Source: Escherichia phage vB_EcoS_HdSG1
Reading direction: 5' to 3' (one strand)
Length of the DNA: 63,595 nucleotides
Sequence record: MK373795.1
Below are positions 1 through 744 of the stretch, piece after piece (the stretch's first letter is position 1; each line of letters opens with the position of its first letter). A model generated the notes under the pieces. It did not search any database, was not told the DNA's origin, and worked only from the letters and a program-made list of their open reading frames with translations. The position numbers and the translations under genes were made by a program.

Positions 1-680
1 TTTATAAAGGGGTCTCGTAGGGGTCGTCAGTAGACAACTCAAAAACAAAAAATCTTTATACAATTTATATAAATACACACATACACACATTTTTTACCTT
101 ACTTTTCATGCACTTACCTCCTTTCATTTCGTATATTAAGCGTTAATACATGAGCAATATGACATATATTTGTTGCGCAACGACTGTGTGTTTTCTAACC
201 AAACGAAAGATTACTTTATATACGTCCGCGCGTCTAACACAAAAGAAAAGTAGATTGCAAGCAATTTTTGCTGAGGTAACTCTCGAAGTGAAAGCGATTT
301 GCGAGTTTGAATTTTTGTAGCCCGAAAACGATTCTATTTTATGGTATAAATGTCGGATTTTTCGGGCAAAGCCGGCTTTTCGGTGAGGTTGGGTGGCTGG
401 GATCGGGGTAACGGGTAGCCCATAAAGCGAAAATAGCCGCGAAAACGGGGCACGCAGCGCGATTAAATGGTTGGATCAGTGTAAGGGTGGCGGTGAGGGC
501 GAAAATGCCGCAAAATCGCGTACAGGGAAGCAGGGAGTGGATCGCTGTAAGGGCGTATAAGGCGACTAAATTGGAGTCTATGGTAATGTACGGAAGAAGG
601 ATTCAGGTTCTTAGGGTGCGAATGGTGGAGCTATGGGTGAGGAATATGTGGTCAGCAGGGTGGCGCGGGAGGTTATGCAG

Positions 681-721
681 GTACAAAAACGAAAGCGCCC
701 CGTTGGACTTCAACAGGGCGC
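681..721 (-). terminator. Rho-independent terminator of the terminal-repeat operon
   Basis: GCGCCC (695..700) / GGGCGC (716..721) stem; minus-strand transcript continues into a U-rich run (plus-strand acaaaaacgaaa at 683..694); just downstream of the CDS ending at 745. Confidence 0.55.
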
Positions 722-744
722 GGATTGTATAATGCAGTTAGAAG

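Follow-up and report, generated by a model that had tools for sequence, protein, structure and literature searches.

What is the function of the first 744 nucleotides of the genome of Escherichia phage vB_EcoS_HdSG1 (HdSG1; MK373795.1)? The window analyzed was the whole stretch of 63,595 nucleotides, and a first-pass annotation had described positions 1..744 as a non-coding genome end with structured repeats, for which terminase recognition and cut sites, Rho-dependent backup termination or injection-stop signals were suggested. Positions 1..744 were found to be the left part of a long, exact terminal repeat. The explanation we regard as probable is a multi-part cis-acting region in which end-processing signals, a helically phased stretch and a transcription terminator are combined. 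The first-pass observations were confirmed and their interpretation was partly supported; the region is real and conserved, and corrections were needed with regard to the terminal repeat and to a proposed link with tandem repeats further inside the genome.

The terminal repeat and the signals at its boundaries

The window is the complete linear genome of a Nonagvirus (9g-like; subfamily Queuovirinae). Its first 3.5 kb showed 90-95% identity to the Nonagvirus phages 9g, JenK1, JenP1/2, HdK1, BASEL ChristophMerian, FritzHoffmann and SE1. Positions 1..3363 were identical to 60233..63595 with 0 mismatches, and the genome has the same sequence at both ends, as in T5/T7-type genomes with an exact long direct terminal repeat. 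The repeat of 3363 bp makes up 5.3% of the genome and carries seven small leftward genes, including two paralogue pairs (phrog_3199 twice and phrog_13865 twice). Positions 1..744 are its non-coding left part, and a second, identical copy of them is located at 60233..60976 within the right repeat. The "genome end" of the first-pass annotation is a physical end, but not a unique one, since the same 3.4-kb sequence is found at the other end too.

Most related GenBank records (57-60 kb) are permuted circles without the 3.4-kb terminal repeat, and in these the sequence left of position 1 is what precedes 60233 in HdSG1. The gene-free stretch in replicating or concatemeric DNA runs from 59938 to 60976, a conserved intergenic region of about 1040 bp (1.04 kb) that is bounded by the start of one leftward gene (59320..59937) and the end of another (745..993). 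About two-thirds of it is formed by 1..744. The earlier description of a non-coding stretch up to the operon terminator was correct for bases 1..744, but upstream of the other copy another 295 bp belong to the gap. This unique upstream part (59938..60232) is 70% A+T and contains two further copies of ATTTATAAAG (60107 and 60136), TTGCAA repeats and the left arms of a palindrome described below. The leftward operon starting at 59937 presumably has its promoter here as well. The genes flanking 1..744 all belong to PHROG families of unknown function, and neither a Pfam match nor a PDB relative was found for them.

The deposit of phage HdK1 has a 3367-bp repeat, also with 0 mismatches, which ends on the right at the identical base (...GCGGGGCGGCTC) and starts on the left 3 nt further in than in HdSG1, at ATAAAGGGG. 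The ends of HdK1 were set where most reads stopped abruptly (PMC6563267). For phage 9g, a single read-start hot spot at position 28,243 was reported, from which a terminal repeat of unknown size was inferred (PMC4276943). This position aligns to the base with 3363|3364 of HdSG1. The right boundary is backed by two laboratories, and the left boundary by two deposits that agree within 3 nt. A small hairpin, GCCGC-GGG-GCGGC, precedes the right boundary. In 9g virion DNA, read coverage of the early-gene half exceeded that of the other half about 1.5-fold and changed abruptly at the mapped terminus (PMC4276943); this step could be due to a modification-dependent sequencing bias or to the packaging mode.

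The left end starts with the terminus sequence TTTATAAAG (1..9, plus strand), which together with the preceding A at 60232 forms the third of three ATTTATAAAG copies. ATTTATAAAG was found only three times in the genome (60107, 60136 and 60232), all within 135 bp at the boundary, compared to 0.36 expected copies, and three copies were reached in 0 of 100 shuffles. The copy at 60232 straddles the boundary itself. An inverted TATAAAGA is located at 53..60, and the TTTATAAAG core was kept in all relatives. GGGGTC, reported twice within the first 25 nt, was found at 9-14 and 20-25 (plus strand) as part of a left-end module, GGGGTC-TCGTAG / GGGGTC-GTCAGTAG, which is conserved in relatives. The plus strand of the unique genome contains three GGGGTC copies in all, and a related sequence, AGGGGT.TC, was kept in Klebsiella-type phages and in the metagenomic contig L067.

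The candidate recognition motif for end processing, TCGTCAGTAGACA (24..36, plus strand), starts 23 nt inside the left boundary. The left cut lies 23 nt upstream of TCGTCAGTAGA (24-34), and the right boundary lies 22 nt upstream of TCGTTTGTAGA (3386-3396). The latter is the first of two tandem motif copies on the plus strand just outside the right repeat boundary (3386..3414), the second being TCGTCACTAGACA (3402-3414). An element in fixed register with the cut was found at each cut site, as in cos- or pac-like recognition sites. Exact matches to the 13-mer TCGTCASTAGACA were present in the genome only at 24-36, in its repeat copy at 60256-60268 and at 3402-3414, and the shorter TCGT-N3-TAGA was found at 24, 3386 and 3402 plus one site elsewhere (19301). 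By our estimate, the chance of a 12-of-13 match between two 60-nt windows is about 0.001. Both boundary sites were conserved in every nonagvirus with sequence compared, and L067 has both, 3065 nt apart, with the same difference of G (left) versus C (right).

An imperfect palindrome of 174 bp, composed of the inverted repeats I1 and I2, spans the left repeat boundary (60174..60347). Its right arms correspond to 59..115 of the left copy, and in virion DNA both arms are present in the inner (right) repeat copy only. Folded as single-stranded DNA, the palindrome reached -23.6 kcal/mol compared to -13.5 kcal/mol for shuffled sequences (z-score -3.8), and 0 of 200 shuffles were as good. It was kept in 13 of 13 genomes, with z-scores from -2.2 to -6.8. 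In the Klebsiella phage vB_Kpn2-P2 and in L067, long inverted repeats with different arm sequences were found around the homologous terminus motif (z-scores -4.2 and -2.7). A left-end inverted repeat is present in three lineages, and since the arms are replaced by different sequences in Kpn2-P2 and L067, it is the architecture that is conserved, whereas the sequence turns over.

On this evidence an end-processing role for the first ~115 bp is considered likely, with good confidence. TCGT-N3-TAGA would be read by the end-making nuclease, presumably the terminase, which would cut at a fixed distance of 22-23 bp to the left of the motif, and the same arrangement would set the right repeat boundary at 3363|3364. 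The left cut site would lie in an AT-rich core flanked by the long inverted repeat, which could form a hairpin or a cruciform or be bound by a dimeric protein, and which may help to duplicate the terminal repeat, as proposed for the T7 concatemer junction. The terminase genes are located at 7944-8552 (small subunit) and 8521-10119 (large subunit), and the family assignment is a weak Terminase_6N match. The earlier suggestion of terminase recognition fits the first ~40-115 bp, through a motif that had not been listed.

Several observations weigh against this interpretation. The 9g study saw a hot spot only at the right boundary and none at the left (PMC4276943), and the left end rests on two GenBank deposits that are 3 nt apart, of which HdK1 comes from the group of Korf et al. 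2019 and HdSG1 possibly from the same group. TCGT-N3-TAGA is only marginally enriched genome-wide (5 matches compared to 1.8 expected), so its significance is due to its position and not to its frequency. If the other right-hand motif copy is paired with the left one, the spacings become 23 and 38 nt. The motif copies at the two ends have the same orientation, which is a misfit with simple staggered nicks on opposite strands. The Klebsiella-type phages are an exception, as they lack the left TCGTCAGTAGACA copy, though AAAGGGGTATCTCGTA is kept. Finally, binding of an end nuclease to the motif is putative.

Conservation, helical phasing and transcription termination

Mean pairwise identity was computed among 12 nonagviruses. 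It was 91% for positions 1-170, 68% for 171-245, 95.4% for 246-360 (the most conserved segment), 92% for 361-690 and 94% for 691-744. In the flanking genes the corresponding values were 89-91% at second and 72-76% at third codon positions. The stretch 246..690 is more conserved than the neighbouring codons, and the region is under strong constraint. Positions 171..245 form a hypervariable spacer, with three unrelated sequence versions among the nonagviruses. One version, found in the SP8, PD328 and SE1 types (L011, L012, L013, L058, L060, L079, L104 and L192), has an extra terminus module, TTTATGAAC-N14-TCGTCAGTAGACA, at about 175-200 of the HdSG1 homology and with the same 23-nt spacing as at the left end. 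Cutting might alternatively take place at this module, or might have done so in the past.

The same layout, a small early gene cluster followed by a 1.2-kb gap and the next operon, was found in more distant phages, namely the Klebsiella phages vB_Kpn2-P2 and K9PH25C2, Ec1-ASingh and the metagenomic contigs L067 and L180. The gaps of these distant phages did not align with the HdSG1 gap in a plain blastn search. A multiple alignment gave cross-lineage islands, which were AAAGGGGT.TCTCGTA at the terminus, GATTGCAAGCGATT.TTG, TTGGATTTTTGTGGA.CAAAAACGATTCTATTTTAT, AAAATCGCG.ACAG, TCGCTGTAAGG, GTGGTCA, the terminator loop and TGTATAATGCAGTTAGA. Two blocks within 253..342 were conserved across three lineages, GATTGCAAGCAATTTTTGC at 253-271 and TTGAATTTTTGTAGCCCGAAAACGATTCTATTTTAT at 307-342. 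A search for more distant relatives by means of the 205-aa neighbour gene returned nonagviruses only, and no similarity of the region to plasmids or E. coli genomes was found.

The claim that no convincing gene is present in 1..744 was upheld. No open reading frame (ORF) was conserved across 13 related genomes, and the 82 variable sites in 361-690 were split 28/26/28 over the three codon phases, without the 3-nt periodicity of a coding sequence. Independent 1-nt insertions or deletions were observed at ~497, ~598 and ~667. Several annotators have called ORFs of 34-102 aa in the region, and ORFs of 34-39 aa persist in most genomes; this persistence is due to the high DNA conservation. The ORFs annotated in JenK1, SP8, BRET, HdK1, PD328 and SE1 are all at different places. 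They include HdK1rev_00095 (L006 477-740), and those that cross the repeat boundary or lie close to it are probably artefacts of gene calling. An unannotated small protein gene is given hardly any credence. In JenP1 an HNH homing-endonuclease cassette (L014 1535-2140) replaces ~515-744, including the terminator, while 1-514 is kept. As this phage is viable, the replaced part is dispensable, and the core of the conserved element can be placed at 246-514.

A plus strand rich in G and poor in C had been noted over 360..700, and the signal was confirmed for a stretch of 343..690. Bases 343-672 contained 39% G and 14.5% C, and the GC skew of +0.46 was the largest of any 330-nt window in the genome. 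The skew was kept in other lineages (G 33-36%, C 16-17%). Positions 246..560 were found to be helically phased, with A/T-rich and G/C-rich patches alternating every 10.5 bp. The periodogram power at 10.5 bp was 13.1, the strongest in the genome, compared to a maximum of 8.4 in 1131 other 330-nt windows, and the signal was localised to 246-560. The homologous stretches of Kpn-type phages and L067 had a power of 7.2-7.8 at 10.6 bp, above the 99th percentile of the null. The phasing arises because A-tracts, such as those of four SCGAAAAY sites (322, 427, 439 and 499), alternate with G-rich patches. Three GGATCnnnGTAAsGG sites (400, 473 and 539) are located in the same stretch. Phasing of this kind is a signature of curved or protein-wrapped DNA, and 246..560 is predicted to be one or the other.

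The smaller repeats listed in the first-pass annotation were located again. The inverted repeat CCCGAAAA (321-328) / TTTTCGGG (359-366) is present in HdSG1, but its arms span only 7 bp in most relatives, and more distant lineages lack it. The two GCGAAAAT... copies at 427 and 499 (plus strand) were also found. A likeness of these copies to tandem repeats at 3072..3150 was not supported, as it came down to one shared 8-mer, CGAAAATA, of which about 0.4 would be expected by chance according to our estimate. The tandem repeat itself has a unit of 26 nt (GTGCCGAAAATACCAGGTAGCAGCAC), with 2.8 copies at 3070..3144, and is located in a divergent promoter region inside the terminal repeat; several GTTATAGTA-like -10 elements are found at ~2960-3350.

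Four other candidate elements were tried and rejected. The G-runs of a possible conserved G-quadruplex at 391-416 were broken in ESCO3, HdK1 and JenP2. An array of Chi sites guarding the end from RecBCD was dismissed, as 1..744 contained neither a Chi nor a one-mismatch Chi. A CsrA sponge was likewise dismissed, as the number of GGA motifs equalled our estimate from composition and no CsrB-type match was found in Rfam. No -35/-10 pair conserved across lineages was found on either strand that would make the block 307-342 a sigma-70 promoter. A canonical Chi, GCTGGTGG, is located at 1052..1059 (minus strand) inside a repeat-borne gene, and Chi plus one-mismatch Chi sites are enriched genome-wide (87 compared to 33 expected).

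The operon terminator said to close the region was found at 685..721 on the minus strand, with the stem at 695-721 and the T-run at 685-694. It serves the leftward early operon in the repeat (genes 745..3005). The 11-pair stem, with 8 G-C pairs, is followed on the minus strand by TTTCGTTTTT, and the structure begins 23 nt past the stop codon of gene 745..993. A G+C-rich hairpin followed by a U-run, past the end of a gene in the same orientation, is the hallmark of an intrinsic terminator. Two of the stem pairs change on both sides between lineages, and the same terminator has been annotated in HdK1 and SP8. Between this stop codon and the terminator lies TGTATAATGCAGTTAGA (726..742), which is conserved across three lineages and contains a consensus TATAAT on the plus strand. 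TGGACT is found 18 nt upstream of this TATAAT, in the terminator loop. The element could be an antisense promoter facing the early operon.

The minus-strand transcript of the G-rich stretch is C-rich and G-poor. The run with a C/G ratio of at least 2 in 78-nt windows on the minus strand was the longest in the genome at 420..713, and the minus-strand RNA from 684 to 360 was predicted to be unstructured (-46 kcal/mol, z-score +0.5). A stretch of at least ~78 nt with C above G, in a poorly structured and untranslated RNA, is what characterises a rut site. The rut-like composition pointed out earlier was not only confirmed, but proved to be the most extreme in the genome. Composition alone, however, accounts neither for the 92-95% conservation nor for the 10.5-bp phasing.

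Explanations for positions 246 to 690

We infer from sequence which proteins would bind where, and the functions considered for 246..690 have the same basis. In the explanation we prefer for the region as a whole, 246..690 would provide DNA for wrapping on a protein, most likely in recognition by the terminase small subunit beside the left end. Its C-rich, unstructured and untranslated minus-strand transcript would load Rho and back up the terminator at 685..721, which would end the repeat-borne early operon. Taken by itself, the assignment of 246..690 as a platform for packaging recognition is a tentative one. It is somewhat doubtful that the stretch is mainly a Rho-dependent termination zone, a function that may coexist with another role. 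Rho would load on readthrough transcripts and halt them before the repeat boundary and the next operon, which would insulate the immediate-early genes from the next gene class, and a phage antiterminator might override it. The skew in 343-672, the run at 420..713 and the unstructured RNA all agree with such a zone, as does its position directly downstream of the stop codon and terminator of the operon, and the skew was kept in three lineages despite a sequence identity that we estimate from the alignment at ~65-70%. However, a rut site needs about 80 nt of suitable composition and not 92-95% conservation over 330-450 bp, it needs no phasing at the DNA helical repeat, and in JenP1 the loss of the terminator together with the adjoining 175 nt of the zone has not abolished viability. 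A role for Rho is compatible with the preferred explanation, in which it is included as a secondary one. A third possibility, regarded as unlikely, is that the phage starts its replication in the conserved non-coding region. An initiator such as an AEP primase/helicase would bind repeated sites on curved DNA beside an AT-rich stretch, or a rightward transcript would form an R-loop on the G-rich non-template strand and prime synthesis, as in ColE1 or T4 oriF. This is the largest conserved non-coding region, it has AT-rich flanks (66-70% A+T) and phased or curved DNA at 246-560, and the cumulative GC skew is lowest at ~60 kb, a minimum for which gene orientation accounts equally well. Among the gene products of the phage are a P4-alpha-like AEP primase with a DUF3987 helicase, RNase H and a ligase. 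In Klebsiella-type relatives the homologous position is occupied by ~7-8 15-bp iterons (GCTAACnATTAGnn), but no iteron array was found in 1..744 or in any E. coli nonagvirus, and no DnaA boxes were found in the region, so that of the features of an iteron-type origin only AT-rich DNA was present. A G cluster followed by a G-rich tract, the pattern expected of an R-loop-forming site, was found at a single place in the genome, 391-408 and the DNA after it, but no convincing conserved rightward sigma-70 promoter was found upstream of this tract. Similarity to plasmid or chromosomal origins was not found either. A region in which packaging end and origin are combined within 1 kb is considered distinctly unlikely. 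The cut would be made 22-23 nt from TCGT-N3-TAGA, the repeat may be duplicated through the flanking inverted repeat, and the phased, G-skewed 300-bp element, R-loop-forming or wrapped by an initiator, may be an origin that lies a few hundred bp from the cut and is served by the phage's AEP primase-helicase and its RNase H. The curvature might be enhanced by archaeosine-modified guanines in phase with the helix. The packaging, Rho and origin readings of 246..690 are not separable by sequence. This weighs against the preferred explanation, as do the two properties that each account leaves over: DNA wrapping does not explain the strand asymmetry, and Rho does not explain the phasing.

Two further explanations were weighed against the same evidence. 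A G-rich non-coding RNA encoded on the plus strand of 355..720 is judged very unlikely. The region is highly conserved without a coding signal, and RNAalifold predicted 67 pairs, of which 19 were changed on both sides, including a hairpin at ~553-592 with compensatory changes between lineages. This covariation is circular, since the structure was derived from the same alignment, and nearly all double changes go back to one divergence of two lineages and lie in columns that align poorly. The fold of the plus strand was as stable as that of shuffled sequences (-109.5 compared to -109.4 kcal/mol, z-score -0.02), and there was no stability signal on either strand. A search of 59800..63595 against Rfam (E <= 1) gave only a chance microRNA match outside the region, and neither a conserved promoter nor a U-run after the hairpin was found on the plus strand. 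An injection-stop of the kind known from T5 would be highly improbable. By analogy with T5, the right end would enter first and the early operon would be expressed, while transfer would pause once the curved and palindromic module on the inner side of the right repeat is reached, until early proteins let the rest of the genome enter. The layout is analogous, with seven small early genes in a terminal repeat and a module with repeats and palindromes, and the authors of the 9g study proposed that this end enters first (PMC4276943). The case is made by analogy only, no nonagvirus is known to enter in two steps, and DnaA boxes of the T5 type are absent from the region. The T5 stop region carries such boxes.

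The phage genes mentioned in connection with an origin, and a gene for a PDDEXK nuclease, are on the minus strand. The ATP-dependent DNA ligase is encoded by 49121..50065, RNase H (PF00075) by 50052..50642, a PDDEXK nuclease by 51802..52338 and the 849-aa AEP primase with DUF3987 helicase by 54560..57109. The GCTAACnATTAGnn iterons of the Klebsiella types (L054 ~4100-4230, L055 and L056) directly follow a conserved ATTCTATTTTAT block at the left edge of the element; they are partial in L067 and absent from the E. coli nonagviruses. A palindrome related to the iteron, GCTAATAATTAGC, is found beside the terminus motif in the same Klebsiella-type phages.

Relation to known systems and significance

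Phage terminal-repeat or packaging ends that include a transcription terminator are known, and the region is of this kind. A close parallel is the concatemer junction of T7 and T3, whose terminal-repeat processing was reportedly described by Chung, Nardone and Hinkle in 1990 (J Mol Biol 216) and by Fujisawa and Morita in 1997. Shared features are an exact direct terminal repeat, with ends that are probably fixed in HdSG1, the need to make both ends from one repeat copy in the concatemer, an inverted repeat by the repeat boundary that could form a hairpin priming repeat duplication, and a transcription stop near the junction. Unlike T7, where the repeat has 160 bp and no genes, HdSG1 has 3363 bp with seven genes and no RNA polymerase of its own, and its hairpin is a predicted one. 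We know of no T7 counterpart of TCGT-N3-TAGA at both boundaries. In lambda cos (cosN and cosB) the cut is likewise at a fixed short distance from a one-sided recognition element with bent DNA further in, but HdSG1 has two cut sites 3.36 kb apart instead of one, and a terminase of a different family. Homologues of the lambda R-sites or integration host factor (IHF) sites were not found in the HdSG1 region, and to our knowledge 12-nt cohesive ends are not known for phages of this type.

The phased stretch is similar to pac of SPP1 (pacL/pacC/pacR), where the terminase small subunit binds bent, repeat-bearing DNA around the cut. In both, a few hundred bp beside a packaging cut contain phased A-tracts and short repeated boxes and are predicted to be curved. 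SPP1 packages by headful without exact ends, whereas HdSG1 has an exact repeat; pac is located inside the small-subunit gene, which in HdSG1 is ~8 kb away; and the strand asymmetry of HdSG1, with G far above C, is not a feature of pac. T5 has a similar long terminal repeat with small early genes and a repeat-rich non-coding region, but its repeat is ~10 kb compared to 3.4 kb, and HdSG1 lacks DnaA boxes. Two-step DNA entry is, as far as we know, not known for nonagviruses. Rho-dependent terminators such as the rut site of lambda tR1 share the C-rich, G-poor, unstructured and untranslated RNA downstream of a coding region. The HdSG1 stretch, in contrast, greatly exceeds what a rut site needs in length and in sequence conservation, is preceded by an intrinsic terminator and has helically phased DNA.

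In the literature, no description of nonagvirus repeat boundaries was found beyond the single terminus of 9g, and none of the signals of this region. The nonagviruses (9g, JenK1 and BASEL Bas19 and Bas20) are models for archaeosine and 7-deazaguanine DNA modification and are used in phage collections. The present analysis places both boundaries of the terminal repeat, proposes a short motif in register with both cuts, and corrects the probably spurious small ORFs placed across the boundary in several records. The conserved region is compact and can be cloned and mutated, so that three questions are now testable in this family: by what mechanism a siphovirus generates its long exact terminal repeat, where the terminase binds, and whether Rho insulates the early operon.

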